Under the pieces are notes generated by a model that was not told the DNA's origin, did not search any database, and saw only the letters and a list, made by a program, of their open reading frames with translations. This document shows, piece by piece, positions 1-16,800 of a DNA stretch of 20,235 nucleotides (position 1 is its first letter; each line of letters opens with the position of its first letter). The stretch is from Candidatus Lindowbacteria bacterium RIFCSPLOWO2_12_FULL_62_27. GTDB lineage: Bacteria; Lindowbacteria; 2-12-FULL-62-27. Location: contig MFPR01000012.1 in assembly GCA_001784175.1 (NCBI GenBank), positions 62,001 through 82,235 of the forward strand, given 5' to 3'. Both the position numbers and the translations under genes were made by a program.

Positions 1-1330
1 CCTCCGGCTCCGCAAGGGCCTCCGGCGGCCCACACGGGTGCATGTCCGACGCGGCCGGATCGGGCGGCGCCGGCGTCAGGGCTTCGATGGGCGCCGCCGC
101 TTCGGGCGCGGCTAAAGGAATGGATTCATCTTTTTCCTTAGTTGCCGGCGCCGGCAGGACCGAAGGCGCAGAATCGGCGCGGGCCTGCGCCGGCGGCGCC
201 GTCGCGCAATTTTTGCAGAGCCACGCCGCGCCGCGAAGGAGCGCCCCCAGCGCGTCGGCCGGATCGGAGACGGCGCGCGCGAAGTCGTTCGCGTCCTGGC
301 CGTGCGGAAACTCGACGCGGAAACACTCAAAGCCCCGCGCGCACAAGATCGGCGCGAGCTTCGCCGCAGCGCGCTCGCCGGCGTCGTCGCGGTCGTAGGC
401 GATCAACACTTTTTTGATTCCGTATTTTTTGAACGCGGCCAGATGATCCTGTGTGAATCCCTCGATCCCGTAGCTGGCCGTGACGTTGCGGTATCCCGCG
501 CACCAGAACGTCAGCGCGTCGATCAACGCCTCGCACAAAATCACTTCGGTGGATGCGGCCAGGGCCGACACGTTCCAGACGCCTTTGTGCGGCCCGGGCA
601 AATACAAATGTTCCGGGGCGTCCCGGCTGGTCTTTTGGATTCGACGGCCGTAGATTTCGGTCACGGCGCCGCTTTCGTCGAACACCGGAAACTCGACGCA
701 GCCGCAAAAATGTTCCCGGAACGTTTCCCGATAAATGCCCAGACGCCGCAGCCGGTCCCGAAGGTCGCGGCCTTCCTTCACCGCCGAAAACGGCAGGCGA
801 TAGCCGAGCGTGCGGTTGGCGTAGCCGAGTTTGAAATGGTCAAGGGCGCCGGCGTGGCCGATCCGCCGGCGTTCGAGGTAAGCCAGCGCGTCCGGCGAGT
901 CTTTCAGGGTCTCGTGATAGAACTCGACGACCTGGCGCAGCGCCGTTTGATCGTCGGCGGTTCGTTCGATGGGCGGCGGAAGTTTTTTGACGGAGAGGGC
1001 GACCGGCGGGCGTTTGGGGTTGATCTGCGACAGCGCCACATCATGGCGGCGCAGAAGTTCGACGGCGTGCGTGAAGGACACGCCCTCCGCTTTCATCACC
1101 CACGCGATCACGTCGCCTCCGGCCTGGCACGCGCCGAGACAGTGCCAGAGATTTTTTTCCGGCGTAATCACGAGAGATGGTGAGTGATCCGAGTGGAAGG
1201 GACACAGGCCAATCAGGTCCTTTCCGTGGGGTTTCAATTCGACGCCGCGGCGTTGTGCCAGGTCCGCGACGCTCACGTCGCGTTTGATTCGGTCGAGTTC
1301 TTCTTGCGGGATTCGCCGGCGTGCTCCCAT
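1..1330 (-). CDS. CHC2 zinc-finger/Toprim DNA primase (primase-helicase copy A), runs off the window edge
   Basis: Manual translation from ATG 1330: MGARRRIPQEELDRIKRD...GLCPFHSDHSPSLVITPEKNLWHCLGAC (CHC2)...CEALIDALTFW...YDRDDAG...GQDAND (Toprim). Collinear with the protein at 7529-10627. Absent from the ORF track because no stop falls in the window. Confidence 0.93.
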   Translation of the reverse strand, partial: MGARRRIPQEELDRIKRDVSVADLAQRRGVELKPHGKDLIGLCPFHSDHSPSLVITPEKNLWHCLGACQAGGDVIAWVMKAEGVSFTHAVELLRRHDVALSQINPKRPPVALSVKKLPPPIERTADDQTALRQVVEFYHETLKDSPDALAYLERRRIGHAGALDHFKLGYANRTLGYRLPFSAVKEGRDLRDRLRRLGIYRETFREHFCGCVEFPVFDESGAVTEIYGRRIQKTSRDAPEHLYLPGPHKGVWNVSALAASTEVILCEALIDALTFWCAGYRNVTASYGIEGFTQDHLAAFKKYGIKKVLIAYDRDDAGERAAAKLAPILCARGFECFRVEFPHGQDANDFARAVSDPADALGALLRGAAWLCKNCATAPPAQARADSAPSVLPAPATKEKDESIPLAAPEAAAPIEALTPAPPDPAASDMHPCGPPEALAEPE

Positions 1331-1432
1331 ATTTCCCTTAGCTGCCTCTCTGCCCGAAATCGGGCGGTTTTGGAAAACGTGTCAAGGGGGTCGCTTCAAA
1401 AATTCGCTCTTTTTACGACCATCTAAAAACGA

Positions 1433-1467
1433 CTTGACTTATAGACCATTTGGTCTATACTGTCAAG
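1433..1467. promoter_or_regulatory. Overlapping divergent sigma70 promoters with a palindromic operator (module A)
   Basis: CTTGAC-T-TATAGACCA-TT-TGGTCTATA-CT-GTCAAG. Plus strand reads TTGACT-16-TATACT; minus strand reads TTGACA-17-TATAAG. Lies between the divergent XRE and primase genes. Confidence 0.75.
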
Positions 1468-1512
1468 CGTTATTTTGGAGAGGGTCTATCTGCAACTAAA
1501 AGGAGGAATACA

Positions 1513-1929
1513 ATGGACGTGGAAAAAAATTGTGAAGGAGTGATGTCTATGCCACGTCCACCGTCCAAGGCGTCGCGGAGGGATGCGAAATATAATCAAG
1601 AATTGGCCGAACGAATCAAAGCAGTCCGTAAGTCCCGAGGTTTAACGCAGGCAGAACTGGCGGAGAGAATCGGAGAAACGCAAAGGGCTCTTAGCCACTA
1701 CGAAATGGCTCAGCGCAGGCTACCGGCGGAGACTCTCTTGAAAATTGCACAGACATTACGAGTTCCAATGACAGAGTTGACCAATGGAAAGTATGTATCA
1801 CCGCCCAAAAATGGCCGAAAGCTTCGCGCGATCGTGGAAAAAATAGAAACGCTACCACCCAAAAAGCAACAGCAAGTTGTCGATTACATCGCGTTCATTT
1901 CCCAGAATGGCCAGCGCGTAGCAGCCTAA
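1513..1929 (+). CDS. XRE/HTH_3-family transcriptional repressor (module A)
   Basis: LAERIKAVRKSRGLTQAELAERIGETQRALSHYEMAQRR is a typical Cro/CI HTH. AGGAGG at 1501-1506 favours ATG 1513 over TTG 1450. Confidence 0.92.
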   Translation: MDVEKNCEGVMSMPRPPSKASRRDAKYNQELAERIKAVRKSRGLTQAELAERIGETQRALSHYEMAQRRLPAETLLKIAQTLRVPMTELTNGKYVSPPKNGRKLRAIVEKIETLPPKKQQQVVDYIAFISQNGQRVAA

Positions 1930-1987
1930 CCCGAAAAAGAAAAACCCCGAAGTCGTCGAGCCGCATCACGCGAATGTGATTGAAGTC

Positions 1988-2017
1988 GCGTCGCCTATGA
2001 CCGGTCATAGGCGACGC
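1988..2017. repeat. Perfect 30-bp palindrome 1
   Basis: GCGTCGCCTATGACC|GGTCATAGGCGACGC. Confidence 0.9.
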
Positions 2018-2157
2018 TCGCCGGCGACTCCCGCCGCGCGTGGCATGGCTCGCGGGCGCGGGAGCGCTTGCGCTCCCGGCGCGGCGCATTCGCGCCGCTC
2101 ACCCGCGAGAAAACCAGCCCCGCCCGGAGCAGACTTCCCAAGTACGAGCACCCGCCG

Positions 2158-2830
2158 CCCCAAAGCAAAACCAAACAGAGCAGAGCATATTTAAAGTCGC
2201 CGCCCCTCGTACGAGATTCGGGCACGGTCCCGCTGACATGGAGATAAACAGCTTGCGGTAGGGGCGTCGTCCTTCCACGCCGTGGCCGGACACTTCACCG
2301 GCCACGTCGCACGGCCGACGCCCCGGTATTGATGGGCCGGATCGGGCGTGACGTCCCTCCCCCATGCCTTGGTTTCCCCCCGTGCAGCCCCCCTTCCGAG
2401 GCACCCCCTCCAAGTAATCGGAACCCGCACGGGGGGAACCCCATCGGGGGAGGATGACGCGGCCCACGGAACCGGGCCGCCCGGCTACCTTGCGGCGAAA
2501 ATCGCTTCGCGGATTCTCTTCGCCGCAGCCGGGTCACGCCCGAACCATCCGGCCCAAATGAGATTGAGGCGGGACCGAAAAGAAAAAGCTGACGGGGCGG
2601 CGACAACACCGCCGGCGGTGACCCCTCCGTGGGGCGTCGTCGCTGACACCGGAGGCGACGACGTTGGCCGGCGGACATCGTGTCCGCCGGAAAGAAAACG
2701 GCGGCTGAAGGAAAAAAGCCGGCCCCGTGTTCGTCCACGCCGGAAGCGTTGCCGGTTCCTTCTTTCAGCTGCGGGTTTCCGGGTTCTGGATCCGCGCGGG
2801 ACACGATGTCCCGCGCCCAAGTTTGTGCCA
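2158..2830. ncRNA. Large structured non-coding element (RNA or ssDNA), copy A main part
   Basis: Nested long-range stems 2196-2206/2594-2604, 2225-2233/2569-2577, 2261-2269/2316-2324, 2343-2352/2533-2542, 2356-2363/2446-2453 and 2374-2385/2427-2438. Homologous to 11626-12270 with compensatory changes. No conserved ORF. Confidence 0.7.
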
Positions 2831-2893
2831 AGGCCGGCCAGTTGCGCAGGGGATCCGGAAGCGTGGATTTATCTTTCAGCTACCTGCTTTTGA

Positions 2894-3451
2894 TTACTGC
2901 GCCGCGTTGTTTCTAAAAAATCGAGGGATGTTGAATAACCAAAACAGTATTCTCCACAGGATAAAGGGAATCCATTTAAACTTTTCGGCCCGTTCAGCCG
3001 ATACACTCTTGCGAAAGTGATAATGAAATCTCTGGAGTAACCACCGACCAACATTTGGATTTTCGATATAGAGTCCAAACGCGGTCTGATTTTTCATTTC
3101 CGGTTCGTAGGAACTCCCAAAAGCGACTATAAATTTGGAGCCCTCGTCTACTGATATATACCGTGCCGTTCCAAAGGGTTTATAGCGAATCAATGCACCA
3201 ATTTTTTCAGCATGCGCCTTTGCCGTGTCCGTACCGACTTGTTTGAAAAACTCGATGTCCGTAATAATAAACCGAATTTTCAACTCATGGTTGTTTATAG
3301 CTCTTGTCGAAATGGCCTTGGCAAAGGGCTCGTTTTTCAGCCACGACATATCCTGGCCAATGGCGTTTATTTGGTCTTTAGCGGAGGTCACAAGCTGTAA
3401 CGCCTTCGTCAAGACTTCTTCTTTACTATTCAAACAGCTGAAATTGTCCAT
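2894..3451 (-). CDS. Low-GC cargo protein, possible TrmB-C/PLD-like fold, with a hydrophobic C-terminal tail
   Basis: 185-aa AT-rich ORF. The pattern SAKDQINAIG...KIRFII...RYISVD...GLYIENP...F resembles PLD-like/TrmB effector folds but lacks a clear HKD motif. The fold call is tentative. Confidence 0.7.
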   Translation of the reverse strand: MDNFSCLNSKEEVLTKALQLVTSAKDQINAIGQDMSWLKNEPFAKAISTRAINNHELKIRFIITDIEFFKQVGTDTAKAHAEKIGALIRYKPFGTARYISVDEGSKFIVAFGSSYEPEMKNQTAFGLYIENPNVGRWLLQRFHYHFRKSVSAERAEKFKWIPFILWRILFWLFNIPRFFRNNAAQ

Positions 3452-3478
3452 CTCGTTTCGTCTCCGATGTAATTGTAT

Positions 3479-3749
3479 GCGGACATTTTGTGTCCGCCTG
3501 GAAAAAGTGCGGCCGGATCAGGCGCGCGGTTCGGATTCCGTAATTTCGCCGCGCGGGACACGATGTCCCGCGCCCAGGATTGTGCCAGGGAGGGCCGTTC
3601 AATACATGCGGCCACCTCGTGGCCGCATCCGACAGCGGGCTATCGGCTGAGGCCGGGCTGGATCAGGTCTCCGACTCAATTCCCGGCCGCCGGGAACGCT
3701 GGCGTTCCCGCAGCCGACTACATACAAAAAGCGTTGCGAGAGGCGCAGA
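3479..3749. ncRNA. Structured element copy A, distal hairpin array
   Basis: Hairpins 3479-3497 and 3551-3573, GCGGCCAC-CTC-GTGGCCGC and GGGAACGC-TG-GCGTTCCC. Ends in AAAAGCGTTGCGAGAGGCGCAGA (3727-3749), identical to 12395-12417. Confidence 0.65.
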
Positions 3750-3752
3750 TCA

Positions 3753-3782
3753 GCGGCGCATATCACCGGTGATATGCGCCGC
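3753..3782. repeat. Perfect 30-bp palindrome 2
   Basis: GCGGCGCATATCACC|GGTGATATGCGCCGC; 24/30 identical to palindrome 1. Confidence 0.9.
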
Positions 3783-3865
3783 GGTGGAAACTTCGATCAC
3801 GGCCGGCGGCTCGTCGGGCTTCTGATTTCAAACAGCGGTCAGTCGGCGAATGTTACAATGTTAAA

Positions 3866-3904
3866 GAATGACCCCTTTTTCCTCGGAATGACCCCTTTTT
3901 TCCT
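3866..3904 (+). repeat. Short tandem direct repeat
   Basis: GAATGACCCCTTTTTCCT (3866-3883) and GAATGACCCCTTTTTTCCT (3886-3904). Confidence 0.85.
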
Positions 3905-3911
3905 ATGACTA

Positions 3912-4448
3912 CTATCCCGTAGGAATGATCCTTTCCCATCGCTTTCCATAAAATTCTCGAAGTCCTTTAAATATTCTAAAAATCACCCAAGAACTAAACA
4001 ATCCAAATCCGATAAAAATATAGGGCTTCCATGTTATATCTCTAACAAGACAACTATCACCCGGCCTTTGTGGATCATAGTAAACGGTGACCGAACTATG
4101 TTTAGGGAATTTCTTGACGATTGATTCCATGTTCTCCTTTGTACCTTCGGCAGAGCCGTCTATTGTATAATAATGACCAATGTAATACTCGCTGTTCACT
4201 ACGTACTCGTACGACATATTAATTCTAAATTCTTTTATGGGATATTCTGGATTTGCTATTTCTTTATAACCAATGTCTAATATCCTTCCATCCGCTACTT
4301 TCCAGTTGCCTATGTCATATTTAACACGAATGTCCCTAAAGCCAAAATATAGACCACCGATGGCTAAAAAGCCAAAAACTAGTACTAACATCACAACGCC
4401 CATCCAAAAGATTGAACTCGTCAAAATTACACGCGGATCTACTTTCAC
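3912..4448 (-). CDS. DUF3592-like membrane protein, putative immunity protein for Rhs tip 2
   Basis: N- and C-terminal TM helices flank NWKVADGRI...YEYVVNSEYY...VTVYYDPQRPGDSCL, the DUF3592 pattern. Low GC and directly downstream of the toxin tip. Confidence 0.8.
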   Translation of the reverse strand: MKVDPRVILTSSIFWMGVVMLVLVFGFLAIGGLYFGFRDIRVKYDIGNWKVADGRILDIGYKEIANPEYPIKEFRINMSYEYVVNSEYYIGHYYTIDGSAEGTKENMESIVKKFPKHSSVTVYYDPQRPGDSCLVRDITWKPYIFIGFGLFSSWVIFRIFKGLREFYGKRWERIIPTG

Positions 4449-4468
4449 GATAAAAATCTACAGCCTCA

Positions 4469-5758
4469 TCAGTTGAACATGGCCTCGACCATTCCTTGTA
4501 TCAACCTCATCCCGCCGTCCAATCCCTTTGTAAGAAATACAGCGCCAAGGCCGTCAGTGATCCGAGCCTTAAATGCAACATCAGCGGCAGCCACACCCCT
4601 AATACCGGCAAATACAGATTGAGCGAGAGCCTGTTTAAAAGTATCGAATATGAGATTGCGTGTTTCTTCAGATGACGCCGGGATGCCGTTGGCCTCAAGG
4701 GTGTTTACAACATACTGCGTTGCATTTTGGGAAAAACTCACCAAGCCCTGTGAAAATACACTGCCTCCAGCCGCCACCAATGTACCAAGAGTATAACCAA
4801 CGCCCCCACCTACAAAGCCTATTAAAAATCCCGATTTAAGCGCCGGCACAGTACCAATTTTTTTTCTCCATATCATGGCATTCGCCAACGAACCGACTAG
4901 GCCAGATATGGTACTCGCCGTCATGAATTCACCCAACGAAAATTCGCCCGACGGATCAATTGCGTTTATCGGGTTGCCACTAGTATAAAGATAAAGGCTA
5001 TTTTCATTACGAATAATTGCTTTATCGATACGAGGGTCTTCCGAGAGAAACCGGCCTGTTTCAGGAGAATAATATCGACTTCGGAAGAACACCAAATCTA
5101 TTTCCCTGTCAAACTCTCTTCCGGTATAGCTATAGCACTGTTCGAGGGCCTTGCCCGACGAGCGGACGATTTTTCCGAAGCTGTTGTAGGCCAGTTCTCC
5201 GGTGATCGTGCCATCCTTCCCGATCAACTCTGTAATGCTGTGGAGTCCGTCCCGCAAGTAGTAGTCGGTAGAAATTTCCTTGGTGGTTGGATTTTCTGTG
5301 TGAACAATAAACGGTTCATCATCTATATTACCAAAATCGATGTTTCCATCTGCCGGCCCATGGGTGAAATCCGTTGCGCCCCATGCGATCCAGAAGCCCG
5401 TCAACTCTCCAAGCCCTTGTGCGGTTTCGGCTAAAGGGGATGCGGTGTCTTCATAAGCCGTTGAAAAAATATCTGAAATTTTGCGCGACCCCCTGATGCG
5501 ACTTTCCACCCCCTCACTCATGTCCGTTGCCGATCGAGCAATCGCATCAGAGGGGTTTGGGACTTCCTGTTTCTTCGGTGATTCCGTGGGCGTCCATGCG
5601 CCGGGGAACGGAATCACATCTATCTTCACACGCCGATTTGTCGGACGTGATTGAGTGGGTCGAGACGCTACGCGCGCCGGATCGAGGGCCAGAGCGCCGA
5701 ACGTCGGACACACAGCCGACCTCGAAGGACGCGCGGGAAAAGCGATGACCTTGCTCAC
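4469..5758 (-). CDS. Orphan Rhs core end plus toxin tip 2, fused in frame to a non-Rhs N-terminal leader
   Basis: FTHGP...DEP...YYLRDGLHSI...YNSFG...YTGREFDREIDLVFFRSRYYSPETGRFLSEDP...NPINAIDPSG, followed by a Gly-rich hydrophobic tip. Rhs similarity starts at about 5369. Confidence 0.88.
   Translation of the reverse strand: MSKVIAFPARPSRSAVCPTFGALALDPARVASRPTQSRPTNRRVKIDVIPFPGAWTPTESPKKQEVPNPSDAIARSATDMSEGVESRIRGSRKISDIFSTAYEDTASPLAETAQGLGELTGFWIAWGATDFTHGPADGNIDFGNIDDEPFIVHTENPTTKEISTDYYLRDGLHSITELIGKDGTITGELAYNSFGKIVRSSGKALEQCYSYTGREFDREIDLVFFRSRYYSPETGRFLSEDPRIDKAIIRNENSLYLYTSGNPINAIDPSGEFSLGEFMTASTISGLVGSLANAMIWRKKIGTVPALKSGFLIGFVGGGVGYTLGTLVAAGGSVFSQGLVSFSQNATQYVVNTLEANGIPASSEETRNLIFDTFKQALAQSVFAGIRGVAAADVAFKARITDGLGAVFLTKGLDGGMRLIQGMVEAMFN
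5353..5369. repeat. 17-bp direct repeat, candidate att site (copy 2)
   Basis: CCGGCCCATGGGTGAAA, identical to 13872-13888. Confidence 0.75.
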
Positions 5759-6015
5759 ATCGGCACCAGGCCGCTAAAGACGGTCACGCGTTCCGGCAAG
5801 ACCGGCCACGGTCTGCCGGGCGGTCCAACAATCTCTCGCGGCTTGCCGAACCGCGCCCGCGCGAGTTGATGACCGACGCGCCGCTCTTTAAGTTTTCGAA
5901 TTTGTTTTTGTAAACGGAAACGCTCTGTCCCCACCGTCGAGAGCATCCGGACGGTGAGGCGTTGAATCTTCTGCTCTGTCCGATCCAAATAGGCGTTACC
6001 CGTTGGAAGATTCAT
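5755..6015 (-). CDS. Small basic hypothetical protein
   Basis: ATG 6015 MNLPTGNAYLDRTEQKIQRL... Its stop overlaps the next ATG (ATGA, 5755-5758). RBS is weak. Confidence 0.4.
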   Translation of the reverse strand: MNLPTGNAYLDRTEQKIQRLTVRMLSTVGTERFRLQKQIRKLKERRVGHQLARARFGKPREIVGPPGRPWPVLPERVTVFSGLVPM

Positions 6016-6064
6016 CAAGGGAAATATAGCACAATCCCAGGAGAGCAACAACAAAATTGTTCCG

Positions 6065-6325
6065 TCAAATTCCTCTGTAAACCTCGCGCCGATGGCGTAC
6101 ATAGTAGACGATCACCAGCCGCGCGGCCGTGTCCACTTCGTAGACGATCCTGTAATCTCCCACGCGAATCCGCCAGAGCCGTTCCGCATTCGACAGTTTG
6201 ACGCATTGATTGGGAAAGGGGTTGGAAGCCAGGGAGTCAATCCATCGCCGGATCCGGGCCACCATCCCGGCGGGTAAACGACGCAGGTCTTTCCAAACGG
6301 ACGGCTTTACTTCAACGCGATACAT
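6065..6325 (-). CDS. relE: RelE/ParE-family type II toxin
   Basis: MYRVEVKPSVWKDLRRL...WRIRVGDYRIVYEVD...VRHRREVYR, the RelE signature. Confidence 0.93.
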   Translation of the reverse strand: MYRVEVKPSVWKDLRRLPAGMVARIRRWIDSLASNPFPNQCVKLSNAERLWRIRVGDYRIVYEVDTAARLVIVYYVRHRREVYRGI

Positions 6326-6503
6326 TCCGTTTGAGCCGCCGCTTCATGTCCTCCCAGCTGATCGTTTTTTCCCGCCGCCGTTCGGCCACCACCGCCAGAT
6401 CGTGCAGGTCTTCGACCATCTGCTCGTAGCGTTCAATCGGCAGAATCGCCGCCGTCCTTTTGCCTTTGGGGTCAACCACAAACTGCGCTTGGGCTTTGTT
6501 CAT
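6312..6503 (-). CDS. RelB-like antitoxin
   Basis: 63 aa, FVVDPKGKRTAAILPIERYEQMVEDLHDL...ISWEDMKRRL. Overlaps the relE start and the integrase stop. Confidence 0.85.
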   Translation of the reverse strand: MNKAQAQFVVDPKGKRTAAILPIERYEQMVEDLHDLAVVAERRREKTISWEDMKRRLKRNVSR

Positions 6504-7501
6504 AATGGAAGCATACCAACGTCGCCGTCCTCTGGCAATTTTTGTTCATCCGGTTTGAGTTTTGCGGCGGGGTGCGTGGCGGTGTGAATCTCCTTGAGCT
6601 TTTTGATGGCGACGTGCGTGTAGATTTCGGTCGTCTGTAGGACCGCGTGGCCAAGCATCGCCTGAATGTAGCGGATGTCCGCGCCGCCTTCGAGCATGTG
6701 GGTGGCGCAGGTGTGGCGGAACAGGTGGGACGCGCCGCGATGGGTTACGCCGCATTTGCTCAAATGCGAGATCACGCACGCGGTCAGACGGCCGCGGGGC
6801 ATGCGGCGGCCGGCTGGCGTGAGAAAGAGCGCGCCCGGGTCCGGCGGTGTGACCAGATGCGGGCGTCCGTCATGGAGAAACGCGCGGATCCAGCGGCAGG
6901 CGCGCTCACCGATGGGGACGACGCGGTCTTTGCGGCCCTTGCCCTGGCGGACGAAAACGATGCCGGTCTCAATGTCCACGTCGTCGACGTTCAGGTTGCA
7001 GACCTCCATCCGGCGGATCGCCGTTGAGTAGAGCGTTTCGAGGATGGCGCGGTCCCGCAGGCCCAGGGGCGTGCGAAGGTCGGGCGCGTTCATGACGCGG
7101 CCGAGTTCCTCCTGGTTGAGGATTTTTTTCGGCAGGCGTTTGTCACGGCGTGGAATATCAATGTCGGCGACGGGATTGTAGAGGACAAGATTTTGTTTGG
7201 CGAGCCAGCGGAAAAAGGACCGGAGGTTGGTGAGGACGGTGTTTTGATAGGCGAGACTGATGGGCCGGTCGGTGCGGGGGTTGATCGAGTGAAAGAGAAA
7301 CCGCTGGAAGCGTTCGACGATGGGGCGCGTGACTTCGGTGGGACGTAACACGCCGCGCTCCTCGCACCAGATCGTAAATTTTCGAAAGGAATAGATGGCG
7401 CGGTTGAGCGTGTCGGGTGTGTGGCCTTTGACTTGCATCGCCTCCGTGTACTGCTCGATCCGCGCGGCGAATCCGGCCAGATCGCGCTGGGTGTCGCTCA
7501 T
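6500..7501 (-). CDS. XerC/XerD-like tyrosine recombinase (element integrase)
   Basis: SAM-like N-terminus. Catalytic R (TAIRRME), K (GKGRKDRVVP), HLFRH, LGH and Y (TTEIYTHV) are all present. Confidence 0.96.
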   Translation of the reverse strand: MSDTQRDLAGFAARIEQYTEAMQVKGHTPDTLNRAIYSFRKFTIWCEERGVLRPTEVTRPIVERFQRFLFHSINPRTDRPISLAYQNTVLTNLRSFFRWLAKQNLVLYNPVADIDIPRRDKRLPKKILNQEELGRVMNAPDLRTPLGLRDRAILETLYSTAIRRMEVCNLNVDDVDIETGIVFVRQGKGRKDRVVPIGERACRWIRAFLHDGRPHLVTPPDPGALFLTPAGRRMPRGRLTACVISHLSKCGVTHRGASHLFRHTCATHMLEGGADIRYIQAMLGHAVLQTTEIYTHVAIKKLKEIHTATHPAAKLKPDEQKLPEDGDVGMLPL

Positions 7502-7528: not shown

Positions 7529-10500
7529 CTACGACGCCGTTTTGGGGCGCTTGGCGTCTTTCTCTTTTATATGCGTTTTCGCCCGATTTTTGAGAAGTGC
7601 GTTTGAAGCGGTCGGCGTTGTTGGAGTTGCGGAAGAATCCACACCCGGACCACCCCCGGACCGGGGGCGGACCGCGCCCGGACCGGACCCGGACCGCGAT
7701 CCCTCCGACCCGGACCGGTCGGCATTTTGCCAGGACCGGTCGCCGTCGTAAGGCTGTTCGAGTGTGGCCGGATCGATCAGGCCCATGCAAAACGGCGCGC
7801 CGTCCTTGCCTTGGCCGTCGTAGATCAACTCGTAGACGAAGGACTGACCGCGCCCGCGGTGGAGGATGAGAAACTCCATTTCGACCAGGCGCGCCATGTG
7901 GATTTTGAGCGGCGTGTCGCTCCATCCCGTGAACTCGCGTACGTCGCGGCGGCCGAACCGGAAAGCGGCGCGGGTTATTTTGCCGCCGTTTGTTTTCGCC
8001 GTCACCATGTCGTCAAGAAGAGTGAGCAGGCGGCGTGTCTGCGGCTGGAGTTCATCGAGGGACCGGCCGAGGACGACGTTGGCGATGCGGTTGGCGCCCT
8101 CGATGTCTTTCGGCATGACCTCGATGTAGGAAATCACGCGCGGGCCGTCCTGCGTTTGTTTGACGGGGCGCTGGTACTGATGCAAAAGCGCAATGGACCG
8201 GATCAGCGTCAGATATTTCGGATGGTCGCGCCGCGTCCGCAGTTGGGTGCTCAAGAATTTGAGTTGTTTGGCGTAGCGGTTCACGACGCGGATCGGGCGC
8301 AAAAGGCGCTGGGCGTTTTGGTGGCGGCGCAGGATGTCGTCGCGCCGTTCCTGACGCAGGACGCCCTCAAGCGTCTCGCGTTCGCGCTGTAGCTCGTGGA
8401 TCCGCTCCGTCTGCTCGCGGTCCTCGTTGATCGTGATGACCAGGACGCGGTTTAGGAGTTCCTCGTCAATCTCGTAATTGGTCGTCGTGATGATGATGAC
8501 GACCGGCCCCTCGACTCTCGACTCAAACGCGACGTGCTTGCCGGTCGTCGGGTCTTTGCCGGTGGACGCAATCACCAGCTTGCCCTCGCTCTGTAGAAGT
8601 TTGATCGCGTAGGTGGCGTTCTCCGCGCCCTTTTCCTCGACGATGGCGAGGATTTTGTGTTTGAGATTTTTTTCGCCCATGTAAAAGAGTGCCTGGCCGG
8701 TGACGGCGCTGAATTGTTCGCGCTCCTCTTTCGGCATGAGCGACAAAATGGCGTCCATGAGCGTGGTCTTGCCGGCGGCGCTGGCCGACTGGATGATGAT
8801 CGCCAGCGGGTCTTTGAACTTGCGCGACACGCACGCGAGGTATCCGGTGAGGGCGTTGACTTCCTCTCCGACAATGCCGATGGACTCGAAGTCCTTGACG
8901 ATCTGGTCCAGCAGATCGGGCGCGCGAAGAAACGCCAGCGCTTCCTCTTTCTCCGCCTCGGTTAACGTCACGGTTGCATCTGGCGGGTTGATCGCCTTTT
9001 GGATGAGGTTGTCCTGGAGTTCTTCGAGTTTCAGAAGCAACCGGCGCAGGTCGTCTTTCAACATATCTTCGGACAGGCTGGTCTCGGTCGAAGCGGCTTT
9101 GAGAAACGCCGCGCGGTGCCTGGCGTTTGCCAGGTCCACGGTGTCGAGGTGGAAGCGGTCGCCGATCGACACGCGCACGCTCACGCGCAGGACGCCGTAG
9201 GTCGTGTTCTTTTCAATGCCGCGAATCCGCCACGCGCGGCCGTCAAAGACTTCATCGAGTTGGTGGCCGTTACCGGACGGGATCGCCGCCGCCTCCGGCC
9301 TCGCGTGGGCCTCCAGCGGCGCGCACTCGTGCAGATCCGCCGCGGCCGGATCAGCGCCTCCGGCGCCACAAGTGCCGATGTCTCCGACATCGGCCGGATC
9401 GGGCGCCGCCGGCGTCAGGGATTTCTCGCCTGGTGATTCTTCGGCGGCTGAAGGTGGAGAAATTTTTTCTTTAGCTGCTACCGGCATGTCTACGATTGAC
9501 GATTTGCCTCTGCCGATCCACGCCGCGCCGCGAAGGAGAACTCCCAACGCGTCGGCCGGATCGGAGACGGAACACGCGAACGAGTTCGCGTCCTCACCGT
9601 CGGGAAAGTTTACGCGCGACACTTCGAAGCCGTATCCCATCAGGATCGCCGCCAGTTTCGTCGCGGCGCGGTCGCCTGCCTCGTCCCGATCATAGGCGAT
9701 CAACACTTTTTCGACTTCGGACATCCTGAGCGCATGGAGATGATCCGCCGTGAATCCCTCGACACCGTAGCTGGCCGTGACGTTGCGAAAGCCCGCGCAC
9801 CAGAACGTCAGCGCGTCAATGAGGGCTTCGCACAGGATCGCTTCTTTACTCGCCGCTAAAGAAGAAACATTCCAGACGCCCTTGTGCGGCCCGGGCAGAT
9901 AGAGGTGATAGGCCGTCCCGTCGCGCAGGTCGTCCCGAATCTTGCGGCCGTACATTTCGGTGATGCTTCCGTTTTCGTCCATCACGGGAATGACGATACT
10001 GCCGTTGAATCGTTCATGACCTTTGACGCTGTAGACGCCGAGTCGTTGAAGCTGGCCGCGAATCTTCGCGCCCTCGTCGCGGTTTGAGTCGGCGAGATAG
10101 TAGCCGAACGTTCGGTTGGAATAGCCGAGTTTGAAATGGTCGATGGCGCCGGCGTGGCCGATCCTGCGGCGTTCGAGGTAGGCTAGGGCCTCCGGCGAAT
10201 CTTTGAGCGTCTCGACGTAGAAATCGACGGCGCAGCGCAGCGCCGTCTGATCGGACGCGCCGATCGGAATGGGACAGGGAAGTTTTTTGACGGTGCCGAC
10301 TTTGACGACGGGCCGGGCAGTCGCCGGCGTGAGCGCGACGTCATGCCGGCGCAGAAGTTCGACGGCCTGACGGAAGGACACGCCCTCCGCTTTCCGAACC
10401 CAATCGATCACGCTGCCGCCCTTCGGGTCCTGGCACGCGCCGAAACAGTGCCAGAGGTTTTTGTCAGGCGTGATGACAAGAGACGGGTTGTGATCGTTGT

Positions 10501-10627
10501 GGAAGGGGCACAGGCCGATCAAGTCCTTGCCATGCGGCGCGAGTTCGACGCCGCGCCGCCGCGCGAGGTTGGCGACGGCAACGGCTCGTTTGATTCGTTC
10601 AAGCTCTTCGTCAGGAATCCGTCCCAT
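7529..10627 (-). CDS. CHC2 zinc-finger/Toprim primase fused to a P-loop (AAA+/MCM-like) helicase (copy B)
   Basis: CPFHNDH...WHCFGAC; CEALID/YDRDEAG/GEDANS; Walker A SASAAGKT; Walker B LAIVEE; ELLNR. Start set to ATG 10627 by alignment with copy A. Confidence 0.94.
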   Translation of the reverse strand: MGRIPDEELERIKRAVAVANLARRRGVELAPHGKDLIGLCPFHNDHNPSLVITPDKNLWHCFGACQDPKGGSVIDWVRKAEGVSFRQAVELLRRHDVALTPATARPVVKVGTVKKLPCPIPIGASDQTALRCAVDFYVETLKDSPEALAYLERRRIGHAGAIDHFKLGYSNRTFGYYLADSNRDEGAKIRGQLQRLGVYSVKGHERFNGSIVIPVMDENGSITEMYGRKIRDDLRDGTAYHLYLPGPHKGVWNVSSLAASKEAILCEALIDALTFWCAGFRNVTASYGVEGFTADHLHALRMSEVEKVLIAYDRDEAGDRAATKLAAILMGYGFEVSRVNFPDGEDANSFACSVSDPADALGVLLRGAAWIGRGKSSIVDMPVAAKEKISPPSAAEESPGEKSLTPAAPDPADVGDIGTCGAGGADPAAADLHECAPLEAHARPEAAAIPSGNGHQLDEVFDGRAWRIRGIEKNTTYGVLRVSVRVSIGDRFHLDTVDLANARHRAAFLKAASTETSLSEDMLKDDLRRLLLKLEELQDNLIQKAINPPDATVTLTEAEKEEALAFLRAPDLLDQIVKDFESIGIVGEEVNALTGYLACVSRKFKDPLAIIIQSASAAGKTTLMDAILSLMPKEEREQFSAVTGQALFYMGEKNLKHKILAIVEEKGAENATYAIKLLQSEGKLVIASTGKDPTTGKHVAFESRVEGPVVIIITTTNYEIDEELLNRVLVITINEDREQTERIHELQRERETLEGVLRQERRDDILRRHQNAQRLLRPIRVVNRYAKQLKFLSTQLRTRRDHPKYLTLIRSIALLHQYQRPVKQTQDGPRVISYIEVMPKDIEGANRIANVVLGRSLDELQPQTRRLLTLLDDMVTAKTNGGKITRAAFRFGRRDVREFTGWSDTPLKIHMARLVEMEFLILHRGRGQSFVYELIYDGQGKDGAPFCMGLIDPATLEQPYDGDRSWQNADRSGSEGSRSGSGPGAVRPRSGGGPGVDSSATPTTPTASNALLKNRAKTHIKEKDAKRPKTAS
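7647..7741 (+). repeat. Helically phased GGACC(G) repeats, iteron-like
   Basis: GGACC at 7647, 7658, 7669, 7680, 7691, 7712 and 7733, plus one off-phase copy at 7685. Confidence 0.7.
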
Positions 10628-10726
10628 ATTTCCCGTATCCACCGATCCGCCCGAAACGGGCGTTTTTTGAAAATGTGTCAATGCCGGGTGGGATAATTTT
10701 CGAGACGATTTAACCCACCCGAAAAC

Positions 10727-10776
10727 CTTGACAAACAGACGCCAATTATTTACATTTTATGCAAATAGAAGTCAAG
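10727..10776. promoter_or_regulatory. Divergent promoter/operator region (module B)
   Basis: Inverted CTTGAC (10727) and GTCAAG (10771) enclose the imperfect palindrome TATTTACAT-TTT-ATGCAAATA. Confidence 0.6.
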
Positions 10777-10869
10777 ACGTTTTTTGGATATTTTCCAACC
10801 AAGAAACGGTGCGGGCCAGAGCGGAGATAAACTGGAGGTGATGAAGGTTTGCTTTCTGGAGATAGTATA

Positions 10870-11250
10870 ATGAAACTACAGAAACCGAAGCCGGAGACTT
10901 TCGGATTCCGTCTACAGCAGTTTCGGCTGCAACGGGGTCTGACTCAGGCCGAGATTGGGAAGAAGATCGGGCTGTCGCTGCGGATGCTGAGCTACTACGA
11001 GGGCAACCACGGCCGCCTTCCGCCTGTCGATGTCGTGATGAAATTGGCGAAGGTGATTCGTGTGCCTGTTGACGATTTGCTTGGCGCCGACGCCTCCGAC
11101 TTCGGGCCGCCGCCGCGTTCCGTCAGGCTGCTAAAGAGATTGCGCCGGATCGAGCAGCTGCCGCGCCATCACCAGCGAGCGATCATGGAACATTTGGACG
11201 CGCTCCTGGCAAAACGCGCCAACGGCAATGGCCGGCGCGTGACTGCCTAA
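10870..11250 (+). CDS. XRE/HTH_3-family repressor (module B)
   Basis: FGFRLQQFRLQRGLTQAEIGKKIGLSLRMLSYYEGN HTH. Start is ATG 10870 or TTG 10849. Confidence 0.92.
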   Translation: MKLQKPKPETFGFRLQQFRLQRGLTQAEIGKKIGLSLRMLSYYEGNHGRLPPVDVVMKLAKVIRVPVDDLLGADASDFGPPPRSVRLLKRLRRIEQLPRHHQRAIMEHLDALLAKRANGNGRRVTA

Positions 11251-11610
11251 ATGGGCGGCGACGATTCCGAGCAAACCATTCGACTGCTGACGGAAATCAG
11301 GGACCAACTCAAGCGGATCAGCGCGAAGCTTTCAAATCTGGACGATGTCCGTGTCGGTATCAACGAGCTTGTCCGATATTTTTATGACAGCAAGCCTCGA
11401 TCGCCGTTGGATGATACAGGAAAAAAATACAGCCCCCAAAAAATTCGAGAAGAACATCCCCAAGCATATCAGCCGTGGACGTCCCAGGAAATCGAACGAG
11501 TGGAAAGGGGTCATTCGGAAGGCAAAAGCATAAGGGAGTTGGCCGCCGACCTCGGACGACAACCGGGTGCGATTCGGTCCAGATTGAGTAAATCCGGCCT
11601 GCTAAAATAG
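11251..11610 (+). CDS. Small protein with a C-terminal Myb-like/HTH domain
   Basis: AYQPWTSQE...GKSIRELAADLGRQPGAIRSRLSKSG. Starts immediately after the XRE stop. Confidence 0.8.
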   Translation: MGGDDSEQTIRLLTEIRDQLKRISAKLSNLDDVRVGINELVRYFYDSKPRSPLDDTGKKYSPQKIREEHPQAYQPWTSQEIERVERGHSEGKSIRELAADLGRQPGAIRSRLSKSGLLK

Positions 11611-11625
11611 AAATTCACACATCAC

Positions 11626-12417
11626 CCCCAAAGCAAAACCAAACAGAGCAGGGCGTATTAAAGTCGCCCCGCCTGGGCAGAAGTGTGGGCACGGCCCGCT
11701 CGAATTGTGGGCGATGACCACTTACACGTAGAACGCGCCGGCCTCTCGCGCCGCGAAAAACGCGCGGCGCACGGCCGGCGCTCCGACGACGAGCGGGGCG
11801 GACCGCGCCCCCCGCCGCAGGTTCTCCTCCCCTCAACCTCTCCTCTCCTTGGCATCCCTGTAATAAGGAAGCATCAATGAGGGGAGGAGACCCAGCTCTT
11901 GGGGGGCGCTACGCCGGCGGCCTCCGTCCCTCCGCCGAACATGTGGCGCAACGTCCTGTTGCGCCACCGGCTCCGGAACTCCGGCCTTGTCGTTCCGCCC
12001 CGAACTTCCCGCACACGCGGGCCTCACTGACACCTGAGCTTGTACGGCGGGGCGAGAATCCGCTGTAGGAGACCCATCCATGGGGCGGCGTCACTGACAA
12101 TCTGGGGTGACGCCGACTGGCCGGCGGACATCGTGTCCGCCGGAAAGAAAACGGCGGCTAAGAAAAAAGCCGGGCACAAGCGCGGCCGCGCCGGAAGCGT
12201 TGCCGGTTCCTTCTTTCAGCTGCGGGTTTCCGGTTTCAGGATTCGCGCGGGACACGATGTCCCGCGCACAGCTTCAAGCCATGGACGGCCGTGCGGGCAC
12301 TTCGTGACCGCACCCGAAAGACGGGGTGTCGGCGTGAGCGGCCACGAATGTGGCCGCGCCGGGAAATCAGGATTTCCCGCACGCCGAATGATGCAAAAGC
12401 GTTGCGAGAGGCGCAGA
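11626..12417. ncRNA. Large structured non-coding element (RNA or ssDNA), uninterrupted copy B, ~790 nt
   Basis: Stems 11664-11673/12046-12055, 11693-11699/12017-12023, 11735-11743/11773-11781, 11794-11802/11994-12002, 11805-11813/11901-11909 and 11823-11835/11878-11890, then a hairpin array. Same topology as copy A. Confidence 0.72.
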
Positions 12418-12424
12418 CCCAAAG

Positions 12425-12650
12425 ACGGCGACAGGGCGCTGAACGTATCCGGCGTAAACGTCACCCCGGTGAGCCGGTCCAGCGCGTCGTAGCCGTACTG
12501 CCGCGTTCCGTGCCGGTCCGTCATGGCAGTGCGGTTGTCGTTTGAGTTGTACTGATACCGGAAAAAACTCGTGAGCGCGCCGGCGTGCAGGTGTTCGATA
12601 TCGGTCACCCTGTTTTTCGAATCGTATTTCCATTCCGACACCAGCTTGCC
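12425..12650 (-). pseudogene. Displaced internal Rhs YD-repeat fragment
   Basis: GKLVSEWKYDSKNRVTDIEH...YQYNSNDNRTAMTDRHGTRQYGYDALDRLTGVTFTP. High GC. Rhs similarity ends where the structured element begins. Confidence 0.85.
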
Positions 12651-13105
12651 CCCTTTTCTTTCCTACTTTTGCTAGGGCAGAAAATAAGAAGTATAGTCAA
12701 AATAATTGCGAAAGCCACAACAAAAATATGCACGCACGTCAAAAACAAAACAAAATTAATGGTACCCATAGTACCCAAATAATTGTCTAGTACATAATTA
12801 TATTTTGATAAGATATTATTTACAAAAATAGGAAAATCGCTATTATTAGAATACATGAAATAATGCACGAAAATGAAAAACGATATCGACCAGCAAAACA
12901 AGATGATATAATTAATCAGAATATTCGAATTCCGCTTTCTTATAAGAAAATAAATTAAATGCGCAACGATTAAGAAAAGGTTACCCGCTGCCAAGATCAC
13001 CCTATCGTCGATAGATTTAATAAATATACCTATAACAAAAACAGATATATACACCGACACTATGAAGCGGGGAAATTCACGCAACGAAGAATAATCAAAC
13101 TTCAC
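12605..13105 (-). CDS. Multi-pass membrane protein, putative immunity protein for Rhs tip 1
   Basis: 166 aa with about 4 hydrophobic segments, very AT-rich, 2 bp downstream of the tip 1 stop. Confidence 0.8.
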   Translation of the reverse strand: MKFDYSSLREFPRFIVSVYISVFVIGIFIKSIDDRVILAAGNLFLIVAHLIYFLIRKRNSNILINYIILFCWSISFFIFVHYFMYSNNSDFPIFVNNILSKYNYVLDNYLGTMGTINFVLFLTCVHIFVVAFAIILTILLIFCPSKSRKEKGASWCRNGNTIRKTG

Positions 13106-13107
13106 TT

Positions 13108-13888
13108 TTATAAATCTGCTTGTAAATCTTGTGGAACTGAAGATTTGATTAACTCATAGGCTTCATCATTTGTACTAAAGTTCTGCCTCAACCATGTCCA
13201 ATCCTTGTCCTTACCTTCTTCGATAATTTTCTGCAGATTAGTTCTAAATGTTGTTACACTAGTCTCTAATCCTTCCAACGTCGTTTTCTTTGATGCGGAT
13301 ATATTACCGGTTAGTGCACTATTAATGTTTCTCAGCATTTGAGAGGCCTTCGCATTTAATAAGTCTAGTTTGGATTTATATATTGCTTTCAATAATAATT
13401 TAAAGCCATATGCGGCCACACTAACTACTATCGCACTAACAACCAGTTTCTCGATTAGTGTAAGCTGCCCGAACGGATCCACAGAATTAATAGGGTTTCC
13501 TTCTGTATATGTATACTTGTGATGGGTTTTAGGTTGATCAAGAGATTTAAATACGTTTTCGGACTGTAAGAAATTCCCGCCAATAGGATCATAATATCTA
13601 GCGCGGTAAAAAATGAGGCCAATTTCATCATCGTGTTCCCTGCTGGTATATCCATAGATGTCGGACGGTGGCGTTTCGGTAGGATCGTGACCGGATGGAA
13701 GCAGGATTCGCTTTCCGTAGGCTTTATAATCGTATGTTTTTACGGTTTCGCCTGTCGGGGTCAAAACTTCACGGACAGAATTTTGGGCGTCGTGCAAAAA
13801 GAAAAATTTTGCCGGCGGCGCTCTTGTGCCCGATGTTCCTTGTGTATATGCAATCAGCGGTTCATCGATGCCCGGCCCATGGGTGAAA
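13108..13888 (-). CDS. Rhs core end plus toxin tip 1, out of frame with the upstream Rhs gene and lacking its own credible start
   Basis: FTHGPGIDEPL...HDAQNSV...YKAYG...YTSREHDDEIGLIFYRARYYDPIGGNFLQ...NPINSVDPFG, then a low-GC tip. Confidence 0.85.
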
Positions 13889-16800
13889 AAGTGATACCTG
13901 TCAGGTGCCCGTTGCCGTCGCGCTGATAGCCGACGGATCCTTCGGGATTGGTCATCCGGGTCAGAACCTCTCCTCCGGCCCACTCCCGCGTCTCCGTCCG
14001 AACCGCGCCCGACGGCGAGCGGGTGGTCTGCTCCACCAGGTTGCCAGACCCGTGATATTTGTTGGTGATGATCGTGCCGTCGGGATCGGCCTGCTCGATG
14101 AGCCTGCCTTGACTATCGTATTTGTAGCGGGTGGTTTGTCCTTGCGCGTCCGTCATGGAGATGCGGTTTCCGAATCCGTCGTAGGAGTACGTGTTCACAA
14201 GGGCGCTGTCGGCAAAGACGGACGTGAGGTTGCCGTATGCGTCGCGGCCGTACGTCCAGACATGACCCTCCGCGTCGGTCATTCCCACGCGCCACCGGCT
14301 GCTCCAGCGGTAGGTCGTGATGTCGGCGTTGTTGCGACGCATGACAACAGGATTTCCGTGCTCGTCATATTCGATCTCGGTGACGACGTCCTGAGGCCCC
14401 GATCCGCCGCCCAGCGTTACGCCTGTCGTCCGCGTTTTTGTGAGATCGCCATGCTCATTGTATGAAAATTCCCGGACACTGCCATCGGGGTCGACCGTCC
14501 GGGTAACGCGACCCTGAGGATCATATGAAAAATTCGTGGTGTGGCCATCGATCGTCTCGGAAAGAATCCAGCCCTCCTCGTTGACGACGCGGCTTGTGCG
14601 GCTTCCTAGGCTGTCCCTGCGTTCGACGATGTGTCCGGCTTTATCGTAGGAAAAATTCTCGACAAGGTCGCCCCTCTTCTTCTCTAAGAGCCACCCTTGC
14701 GTGTTGTAGCGCCGCTCAACCGGCGGTAGGCCGCCCACCACGCCCAGCCTAGTCAGGTTGTTGTTGGCGTCATACTCGGCCTCCATCTCCATCGCGATGC
14801 TCTCGCGGCGGATGCGGTTTACCCGCCCGGCAAGATCGTATGAAAAATGCGTGGCATGATCTCCCGTTTGAACATCCGAAAGACGGCCGGTCCCGGCTTC
14901 ATAGACAAAATCCGACGTGTAGGCGTGCGGCCCGCTCTGCGCAAGAATGCGGGTAAGACGGTTTAATCCGTCATAGGTCGCGGACAACGCGACGGTGGGA
15001 TCGGCGGAAGTTGAGCCTTGAGACGTAAGGCCGGTGATCAATCCACGTCTGTTGTACGAAAGATTCGTCGTCAGAGGCGAAAGTCCGGGCGAGGCGCGGA
15101 CATGCCGGGTCAGGCGGCTTTCAGGATCGTAGGTCATCGCCTCCGCTTCGGCCCCGTCCGAAAATTGCGTGAGATTTCCCAGCGCGTCATAATTCATGGA
15201 CGTTGCGCGCGGGTTTGCCGATCCACGGATCATGGAGGTCGGGCGATTGAGCTGATCGTACCCATAGGAAATCCTGAGGCCGTCCGGCCGGCGCTCCTCA
15301 ATCATCAGGCCACGCTCGTCAAAGGAGTAGTCTGTTCGGACGGCGCCGACGCCGCTTACGTTTCTCTGAACGGAGGCCAGTCGGTCAGAGGCTGCGTACT
15401 CGAAGGCGATCGTTTGCCCGTTGGGGCTGGAAATTTCCGTCACATTTCCCCAGCCGTCGTACGCCACAGCCGTGACGAGGTCGGATTCATCCCCGCCAAG
15501 CGCGACGCCTACCGTCCGGAGGGTCGCGGGCCGGCCCGCGTCGTCATACGAAAAAAGTGTCGTGCCGCCGGGGCCTTCCTCTTTGTCGGGCAGGCCCATG
15601 GATTCTTTTGTTCCATAGGTCAAGGTTGTTGTAGATGCAGGCGTCGTCACGCGGCTTACATTGCCATTCGCGTATTCCAGCGCGGTCGTGCCCCGTGCCG
15701 GGTCCGTCATGACGGAAACTGTTCCGTCGGCGTTTCTTCCCACGGAAAACGCAATATCCCCGCTTTCGGATTTCAGAAAATTTCCGGCGGAGTTGTAGGC
15801 GAAATTCACAGGAGAGGATGAAATGCCCTCCAGTCGACCCGGGTGGTTTCGTTTCGGATCGAAATCATCAAGGTTGTCTGGGTAAGTCCACGTGACAGGA
15901 TCGGAGCCGGTCCATCGGGCCAGGTTCTTCATGCGGTCGTATTCGAGAGAGATCGCGTGTCCGTTCGCCTCCACGATTTGGGACGGTCTGCCCAGCGTGT
16001 TCCACTGAAGGGTTGTGGCCGCGTTATGTGGGTCTGTGACTGCATCGATCCGGCCCCCACCGATGGGCTGTCCGGCGAGGTCGAAATTTCGCCACGGGTC
16101 GTACATGACGGCCGTGAACGCGCCCGCCGCGTCGATCAGGCTGGTTTTGTTTGTCACGATCCCGCTTGACGGCTCGTACGCGAGGCTCAAGCGCCCGTCC
16201 GGCGGGGCGATGGAGATCGCGCGGTTGAAGGGGTCGTATGCGACTGAAACCTGATGGGGGCCTTGGCGAACTTCCGTCATAAAGCCGGCAGGAGCGTAGG
16301 TGTATTCTATCGGGTCCCCGGCCGGCCGCGCCACACCCGCCAGCTTGGCCGTTTCGTCGGGACGGCCATCCACATATAAATACAAATATTGAAGCAGGCG
16401 TCCCATTGCGTCGGTGATTTTCGTGATGAGCTGTGATCCGGGGAGATATTCAAAAAGCAGCGTCCGGGACGTGCTGGCGGAAACGACCTGCGTGAGACGC
16501 GCCTCATCGTCGTAGTCGAGGTCGACGGCGTTGCCGTTCGGGTCCTCGATCCGAGTAAGCTGGGCGATCCGCGTCCGTCCTTGGAGAATATCGAAGGTAT
16601 ACCGCGTGCCGTCCTTGCGGGTCATCTCCAGACGTTTTTCGGAAGTCTTGCGCAGGCGCATCGGTTCCGCGCCCGTTCCGGTGACCTGTCGATACTCGAT
16701 CAGTTCACGTCCGTCGACGATCGTTTTCTCGATCGGCCACGGCCGGATGAACGTGTGACGCGTGCCGTCCTCGTCGATCAGGATCACCGCCGTGTCCAGC

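Follow-up and report, generated by a model that had tools for sequence, protein, structure and literature searches.

A chain of covarying, strand-symmetric non-coding modules on integrative islands of Candidatus Lindowbacteria

Analysis of a 20,235-nt stretch of DNA from Candidatus Lindowbacteria bacterium RIFCSPLOWO2_12_FULL_62_27 (the whole stretch is called the window below) reveals that the non-coding region at positions 11626–12417, 792 nt in length and referred to as copy B, is made up of three or four modules in a row, each folding on its own, and is not one fold. Its stems covary strongly without strand preference, and its modules, which seem to recombine and invert, bracket cargo, which is unusual; the family is real, is absent from Rfam and lies within a barely studied groundwater phylum. 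Bacteria have few structured non-coding elements that reach several hundred nucleotides, and for most of these no function is assigned. Tentatively, we favour the reading that the element is a cis-acting structure in the transcripts of both strands, a two-way terminator that also insulates the regulator side of integrative islands from their cargo; if true, it would show mobile islands shielding their control module from transcription of the cargo. The original prediction, made from the letters of the window, had described a single multi-branched fold of about 800 nt, a description that has to be given up since the modules are separable and are found alone, shuffled and inverted.

The window is the final 20.2 kb of its contig, in a genome of 4.39 Mb and 44 contigs that holds at least six copies of the branched part of the element (domain 1). 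Besides copy B these are copy A, also in the window, copies C and D on two other contigs, a truncated copy E (87% identical to domain 1 of B) and a sixth copy, F, on contig C9. The phylum is sampled by four genomes of Candidatus Lindowbacteria (G000–G003), the same four that represent the order, and a metagenome contig, L071, carries the full chain of leader, domain 1, tail, hairpin, domain 2, module X and end module in 683 nt. The parts of copy B are as follows.

11626–11663, plus strand: leader, A-rich and conserved, with an AT-rich hexamer at its end, just 5′ of the closing stem
11664–12055, either strand: domain 1, multi-branched, 392 nt, with a 10-bp closing stem and about ten nested helices
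11735–11781, either strand: P3, a two-part hairpin in domain 1 (outer helix 11735–11743/11773–11781, inner helix 11748–11755/11763–11770)
11794–12002, either strand: variable sub-domain, closed by 11794–11802/11994–12002
12056–12086, plus strand: conserved tail 3′ of the closing stem, common to B, A, C, D, F, L071 and G001:C276
12087–12290, either strand: domain 2, with hairpins 12087–12114, 12121–12143 and 12245–12267 and a GC hairpin region
12326–12418, either strand: three-way-junction module X, in which helix S1 (12329–12336/12380–12387) encloses S2 and S3

The leader is also found 5′ of the closing stem in F, L071, L060, L047 and G003:C73, and in all nine copies retaining the 5′ end it finishes, with its AT-rich hexamer, a few bases 5′ of that stem. 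A sigma-70 scan of copies B, A, L071 and F found no promoter at the leader, the consensus being that of sigma-70, which may not be the phylum's own. Domain 1 of B is 81–83% identical to the copies on contigs C28 and C27, with one compensated pair difference in the closing stem. Its most widely retained piece is P3, and its variable sub-domain contains a long hairpin (11823–11890) whose apical loop is kept between A and B; elsewhere the slot is occupied by a different long hairpin (F and L071) or by an inverted junction module (G001:C276). In F and L071 domain 1 is of a shorter type (261 and 282 nt) that retains P3 and is closed by perfect stems of 22 bp and 28 bp, respectively, and the remaining loci are deletion derivatives or mosaics. 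The GC hairpin region of domain 2 (12155–12215) is preceded by an A-run and followed by a T-run, and is terminator-like on both strands. Module X, completed by S2 (12338–12345/12350–12357) and S3 (12360–12367/12372–12379), scores 81.4 bits in copy B against R1, the covariance model of the junction module, and has a 23-nt terminal block at its end; elsewhere X is followed by a palindrome and by an end module that resembles a terminator, both missing from copy B.

Comparison of the two copies of the window, together with a third partial one, involves the following features.

2158–2839, plus strand: copy A, left part (leader 2158–2195, domain 1 2196–2604, tail and domain 2 2605–2839)
2840–3548, minus strand: low-GC insertion in copy A, with a 185-aa open reading frame (ORF) at 2894–3451 and a 48-nt direct repeat at 2792–2839/3549–3596
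3549–3830, plus strand: copy A, right part (hairpin, X at 3639–3750, terminal block, 26-nt palindrome, terminator-like end module)
1930–2157, minus strand: third, inverted partial copy (X at 2020–2110, palindrome, terminator-like end)
Closing stem: A 2196–2206/2594–2604, B 11664–11673/12046–12055
Second long-range stem: A 2225–2233/2569–2577, B 11693–11699/12017–12023
Sub-domain stem: A 2343–2352/2533–2542, B 11794–11802/11994–12002
Long hairpin: A 2374–2385/2427–2438, B 11823–11835/11878–11890

Copy A had been placed at 2158–2830 plus 3479–3749; it is indeed a two-part element, but it runs on to about 3830. Its X scores 93.9 bits with R1 and is followed by a terminator-like site at 3803–3817, and the third partial copy (77.9 bits; terminator-like site 1960–1946) is 84% identical to the copy on C9. 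The insertion has a GC content of about 46–50%, the 48-nt repeat around it contains a perfect hairpin, and its 185-aa ORF has no Pfam or PADLOC match; PADLOC assigned none of the nine cargo ORFs to a family.

All four pairs of stems that had been quoted from the letters alone lie where they were placed and are complementary in both A and B, and the shared linear blocks are equally real, the 37-nt leader (2158–2194 in A) being 92% identical and the 23-nt terminal block 100%. Domain 2 is 85–92% identical between the copies, and 83–92% when that of B is set against 2592–2839 of A; leader, domain 2 and terminal block are thus more conserved than the primase genes of the two islands (77–84%). Between A and B, blastn aligned nothing over 11701–12043, only the first 37 nt or so of domain 1 being alignable. 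The claim that the stem sequences differ yet equivalent stems are retained holds, as A and B folded independently give the same architecture, and so does the claim that no reading frame is conserved: 1- and 2-nt indels break an 83%-identical A/B block, and the longest internal ORFs of A and B have no significant similarity.

Minimum-energy folds of A, B, C and D, each computed independently, share one nested architecture, in which the closing stem encloses the second long-range stem, P3 and the sub-domain, itself made of the long hairpin together with three or four shorter hairpins. When the second long-range stem is imposed on the fold of B, 1.7 kcal/mol is lost. On the plus strand the whole element folds at −415.9 kcal/mol, as compared with −347.4 ± 8.4 for shuffles (z −8.15), and on the minus strand with a z of −5.91, none of 20 shuffles being as good in either case. 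Domain 1 of B alone reaches −216.6; its 100 dinucleotide shuffles average −170.2 ± 6.3, and 150 windows drawn from the same genome at matched GC content −177.2 ± 12.7, and not one of the 100 or of the 150 is as low. Shuffled sequence, for which equally good stems had been named at the outset as grounds for doubt, folds less well.

Strong covariation was found in each of three independent tests, made on the junction module, on P3 and on the short-type domain 1. In the junction module 90.7% of 535 cells are paired (a figure inflated by the way its alignment was built, as discussed below), as against 71.3 ± 1.3 for shuffled rows (0 of 500 as high) and 33–56% for slid controls; 18 of its 26 pairs have changed on both sides (12.8 ± 1.5 when shuffled), and its covariation score is 0.419 vs. 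0.135. A fourth helix proposed for this module was rejected, being 77% paired with one pair unpaired in 12 of 21 rows. For P3, an 8-row MAFFT alignment (A5) has 82.7% of cells paired vs. 76.0 ± 1.4 shuffled and 27–46% slid, with seven double-changed pairs vs. 3.6 ± 1.1, and 3 of 500 shuffles are as high. Comparing F with L071, two copies from different sources, 16 of the 87 predicted pairs of the short-type domain 1 have changed on both sides and three on a single side, and none is broken. RNAalifold on the close copies B, C, D and E was uninformative (four compensated pairs and a different middle structure); MAFFT puts several of their helices out of register. Intramolecular base pairing is clearly kept in a single-stranded state, by selection or by some other mechanism.

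The pairing has no strand bias. Helices 1–3 of the junction module comprise, over 19 copies, 408 cells, of which 373 are Watson-Crick, 8 G-T, 5 A-C and 22 other, and the 194 cells of F and L071 include 6 G-T and 5 A-C, so that at paired positions neither set has the excess of G-U over A-C expected of an RNA strand. The two strands of F and L071 fold at −165.4 and −167.1 kcal/mol; B, A, C and D are more stable as the minus strand (by 11–20 kcal/mol), F and the whole L071 element as the plus strand (by 6 and 32, respectively). The G-U evidence, called mixed at first reading, is thus confirmed as such. Owing to this lack of bias a classic RNA gene of one strand is not the likeliest reading, and pairing that is almost only Watson-Crick fits single-stranded DNA (ssDNA) or RNA of both strands better than RNA of one. 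Selection had been proposed to act on a single-stranded structure, RNA or ssDNA: the pairing is maintained, as proposed, and would be compatible with either.

The model R1 finds 18 matches in all four genomes of the phylum (4, 8, 4 and 2) and, under stricter filters, none in 147 genomes of other families; R2, the model of P3, finds 10 in all four, three of them new, and likewise none in the 147. Pattern scans of species-representative genomes and of Joint Genome Institute (JGI) metagenomes added only two new loci: the genome contigs gave 12 stretches, two of them true, and the metagenome contigs 18, of which seven belong to the family and five of these seven are the source genome's own sequence. 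Among viral contigs the 16-nt 5′ pattern gave 21 stretches, all chance matches in coding DNA, and the tail pattern none. A weak BLAST match in a distant genome, G056 (62 nt, 77%), is unsupported by R2, and the idea of a dispersed mini-palindrome was dropped, the long hairpin being seen only within copies of the element. As far as searched, the family is confined to one candidate phylum. That it is not a recognised one was confirmed by cmscan of the whole window, both strands, against the 4227 families of Rfam 15 (E ≤ 1, permissive filters; GOLLD, ROOL, HEARO, OLE, raiA and STAXI included), which yielded no match. Literature searches on Lindowbacteria (by title and opening of the abstract) and on structured RNAs tied to integrases, primases or islands found no description of the element. 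The models R1 and R2 offer a handle for mining groundwater metagenomes.

On the island scale, the modules recur shuffled, truncated, nested or solitary and in either orientation. Inverted junction modules bracket cargo, namely the 185-aa ORF in the window and an AIPR gene in G001:C276, and at two loci of G002 they lie about 400 nt apart with nothing between. The end module is closed by a hairpin and then a T-rich tract in 9 of 12 aligned copies. At G003:C140 (about 970–1860) there is a tandem array of four palindrome and end modules, about 150 nt apart with ORF-free spacers; the sequence flanking it is also found 3′ of copy A (window 3830–3900).

At five loci (B, A, D, L071 and G002:C135) the genes on the two sides of the element converge on it, and it lies in either orientation to the regulator, with the regulator on one flank and cargo on the other. 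Terminator-like sites lie on both strands in domain 2 of B (12155–12207), A (2739–2756 and the opposite strand) and L071 (4684–4726), and in these three copies each strand has a GC hairpin with a T-tract, as expected of a bidirectional intrinsic terminator. Strand symmetry, independence of orientation and two-way terminators in convergent gaps together fit a structure of the transcripts of both strands. Accordingly worded, the mechanism would be that both DNA strands are transcribed into the block, the regulator-side operon one way and the cargo operon the other; that the block, acting in cis at the RNA level, would halt transcription from both directions and leave each transcript with a very stable 3′ structure; and that the regulatory module of the island would thereby be insulated from the cargo. 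Only Watson-Crick pairs would then be tolerated, and either orientation would work, because both transcripts must fold. The shared modules would moreover supply homology for recombination, which would account for the shuffled, inverted and cargo-flanking copies.

Several points weigh against this two-way terminator and insulator. The flanking genes diverge at copy C and run in the same direction at F, G001:C276 and G003:C73; copy F has no terminator-like site in the scan. The junction alignment (A3) consists of 22 rows fitted to the model, with 13 training rows, by which its pairing is inflated, and since the copies are related the covariation counts are not independent events. We know of no terminator of such size or complexity. 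A generic terminator does not need a leader that always ends at the closing stem or a conserved apical loop, nor does it call for the invariant bases of the junction or for the faster divergence of stems than of loops that is seen when A is compared with B.

Those same features lend themselves to a dedicated large non-coding RNA (ncRNA) gene, or two, a possibility to which we give less credence. The leader would be its promoter and the RNA would begin at the closing stem, comprise the branched domain of 260–410 nt, end at the downstream hairpin or terminator and act in trans or as a scaffold of the island. The AT-rich hexamer just 5′ of the closing stem, in every copy with a 5′ end, speaks for such a gene, and so does the pairing of the domain's two ends, a trait of many stable RNAs. 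Loop and junction bases are conserved over divergent stems, leader and domain 2 being 85–92% identical between A and B and domain 1 unalignable by blastn; terminator-like sites lie downstream on the same strand; and, by eye, four G-U pairs can be seen in one helix of domain 2 in L071, confined to the plus strand. Highly abundant non-coding transcripts of a phage and its integrative satellites, reported in PMC7567579, provide a precedent. The absence of a G-U excess on either strand argues against such a gene, however, as do the perfect helices of 22–28 bp, unusual in stable RNAs, the occurrence of modules in both orientations relative to one another and to neighbouring genes, the truncation or rearrangement of about half of the copies and the lack of a promoter at the leader in the sigma-70 scan.

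Nearly exclusive Watson-Crick pairing, with G-T and A-C equally rare, is what hairpins of DNA predict, and an ssDNA site, which we consider rather unlikely, would form in the single-stranded state that the island takes on when it is transferred, replicated or recombined, and be used by a tyrosine recombinase or a primase, e.g. for second-strand priming or for capture and exchange of cargo. Conservation of structure and not of sequence is known in integron attC sites, the attP site of CTX phage and the single-strand origins of rolling-circle plasmids. The islands have tyrosine recombinases, a cargo ORF lies between the 48-nt direct repeats with their perfect hairpin, and cargo is bracketed by inverted junction modules. 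The tie to a primase, part of the initial claim, stands for A, B and L071, where a DnaG-type primase gene is present, but it is not general: among the loci whose flanks were scanned, a primase gene was seen only at these three. In a Pfam scan of 19 ORFs of the window, none came out as a relaxase, a rolling-circle Rep or an HUH gene, although an HUH Rep or a relaxase accompanies an sso or oriT; genes with a Y1-transposase domain (frames of about 290–340 aa) number 6–10 per genome in all four genomes, and none adjoins a copy. Orientation to the island core varies, no shared core of the cleavage type was recognised, and known attC sites are far shorter than a closure over 250–390 nt.

A further proposal, which we regard as unlikely too, is that the branched domain is a new kind of specificity module of integrative islands, a single-stranded fold of 260–410 nt made of RNA or DNA. 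Only its architecture and a few loop and junction bases would be fixed, the stems being free to diverge. A protein encoded by the island would read the fold, be it a regulatory or immunity factor or the tyrosine recombinase, which would capture or swap cargo at what would amount to a giant, branched attC. An RNA or ssDNA fold that confers specificity would, if true, be a new class of large functional fold, and a specificity module would be among the largest structured non-coding elements on bacterial mobile DNA.

The least probable alternative is a selfish or neutral mosaic of palindromic repeats, a lineage-specific counterpart of repetitive extragenic palindromic (REP) sequences and bacterial interspersed mosaic elements (BIME) or of miniature inverted-repeat transposable elements (MITE), which would accumulate and nest in the non-coding DNA of islands while hairpin-templated correction, and not selection for a function, keeps the stems perfect: mosaic, nested and truncated copies in both orientations, closing stems that recall terminal inverted repeats in being conserved at the outer tips and variable further in, the four tandem end modules of G003:C140, purely Watson-Crick stems and the 6–10 Y1-transposase genes per genome all suit it, but the copy number is low (four junction modules and six copies of domain 1 in 4.4 Mb), the genome has the constituent hairpins at no other place, no target-site duplication was seen, unpaired bases are conserved across genera, and leader and domain 2 (85–92%) are more conserved between the tandem islands than the primase genes (77–84%).

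Among known systems, REP/BIME, the ornate RNAs of phages, folded ssDNA sites and bidirectional terminators are the nearest concepts, and none is a match to which the element would belong. REP/BIME are mosaics outside genes whose palindromic units alternate in orientation and are joined by conserved linkers, often located after genes or between convergent genes; they fold on both strands and are thought to affect termination and the stability of mRNA 3′ ends. The element resembles them in its mosaic of palindromic units, its frequent place between convergent genes and its folding on both strands, but it is built of much larger units, whose branched domains close over 250–390 nt, and it has 2–8 copies per genome, not hundreds, confined to mobile and defence islands. 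The high dispersed copy number of REP and REPIN is not seen here, with 4 junction modules and 6 copies of domain 1 in 4.39 Mb, and as to the REP-associated tyrosine transposases (RAYT) that REP flank, none of the 6–10 Y1_Tnp genes per genome is on the contigs and at the positions of the copies. The closing stems, of 10–28 bp, look like inverted ends such as those of MITE; by eye no target-site duplication was seen, and the copies are few.

GOLLD and ROOL (PMC12286853), large ornate RNAs of phages and prophages, are likewise conserved multi-branched structures of several hundred nucleotides on mobile elements, without an assigned function. The present element differs from both in having no strand asymmetry, in its long and perfect helices and in modules that shuffle and invert, and its copies are not near transfer RNA (tRNA) genes, of which the window has none. 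An attC site is an imperfect hairpin of 57–141 nt at the end of each cassette, all sites having one orientation. With attC and CTX attP the element shares a conserved structure of variable sequence and the association with a tyrosine recombinase and cargo, but it is 5–10 times larger, branched (260–410 nt) and of mixed orientation, and in contrast to attC it shows no cassette arrays of one orientation and no conserved core triplets that we could recognise. Single-strand origins of rolling-circle plasmids and primase-recognised initiation sites (sso and ssi) are non-coding stretches of 150–300 nt with extensive structure, little sequence conservation and a few loop motifs; they are strictly orientation-dependent and accompany a rolling-circle Rep, whereas here orientation varies and Pfam found no such Rep among the window ORFs. 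Bidirectional intrinsic terminators, finally, are matched by the GC hairpin of domain 2, with its A-run before and T-run after, but that motif makes up about 60 nt of a block of 700–800 nt, and nothing in ordinary terminators corresponds to the branched domain or the three-way junction.

The surroundings of the copies in the window were annotated by a Pfam scan of 19 ORFs, with the following result.

2–1330, minus strand: DnaG-type primase gene
1450–1929, plus strand: XRE regulator gene, whose stop is adjoined by the third, inverted partial copy
3912–6102, minus strand: three cargo ORFs, one with DUF3592
6500–7501, minus strand: tyrosine integrase gene
7529–10681, minus strand: primase-helicase gene (1050 aa)
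10849–11610, plus strand: XRE gene and a second helix-turn-helix (HTH) gene
12419–12641, minus strand: truncated YD-repeat (Rhs-like) fragment adjoining copy B, with RHS_repeat matches

Both copies had been said to lie between the XRE side and an Rhs cassette; the regulator does flank each of them, but the cargo of copy A is not Rhs. On the 3′ side of copy B the order is the truncated YD-repeat fragment, two low-GC ORFs and a 1644-aa Rhs gene (minus strand). The interval 12419–12641 is a breakpoint, at which the palindrome and terminator end module are absent from copy B, and in the ORF 12216–12641 residues 1–64 alone resemble the large Rhs protein. The region 12419–13983, downstream of the 1644-aa Rhs gene, consists of two AT-rich ORFs (GC 31–36%) and the truncated fragment, the Rhs-like part of which ends where copy B starts; it seems to be an orphan cassette cut by a rearrangement.

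The two primase modules of the window are 77–84% identical in DNA (1–1376 vs. 9292–10673), and the XRE proteins next to them are only 35% identical. From this layout the window looks like two related islands integrated in tandem with their regulator genes swapped. The type of domain 1 does not co-vary with the neighbouring XRE, an idea that was rejected because domain 1 is 83% identical between B and D and their XRE proteins 29%. Exact direct repeats of 16–17 nt (5353–5369/13872–13888 and 6863–6878/14146–14161) connect the first island, in the part with its cargo and integrase, to the end of the Rhs gene, and may be chance or recombination scars. No tRNA or transfer-messenger RNA gene was found in the window.

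Across all loci, the neighbouring genes encode XRE regulators, integrases, type I restriction subunits, an SNF2/PLD protein, AIPR, MvaI/BcnI, ParE and Rhs. The island layout recurs in L071 at 287–4442, where a gene for a 1041-aa primase-helicase is followed by a ParE-type toxin gene that converges on the complete copy of the element. Copy C (G000:C28) adjoins, at 8950–12912, genes for a LexA-like S24 peptidase, a Y-family polymerase with IMS domains, an SRAP protein and an integrase, and this cassette is, as judged from its predicted proteins, an SOS-type mutagenesis module on the island.

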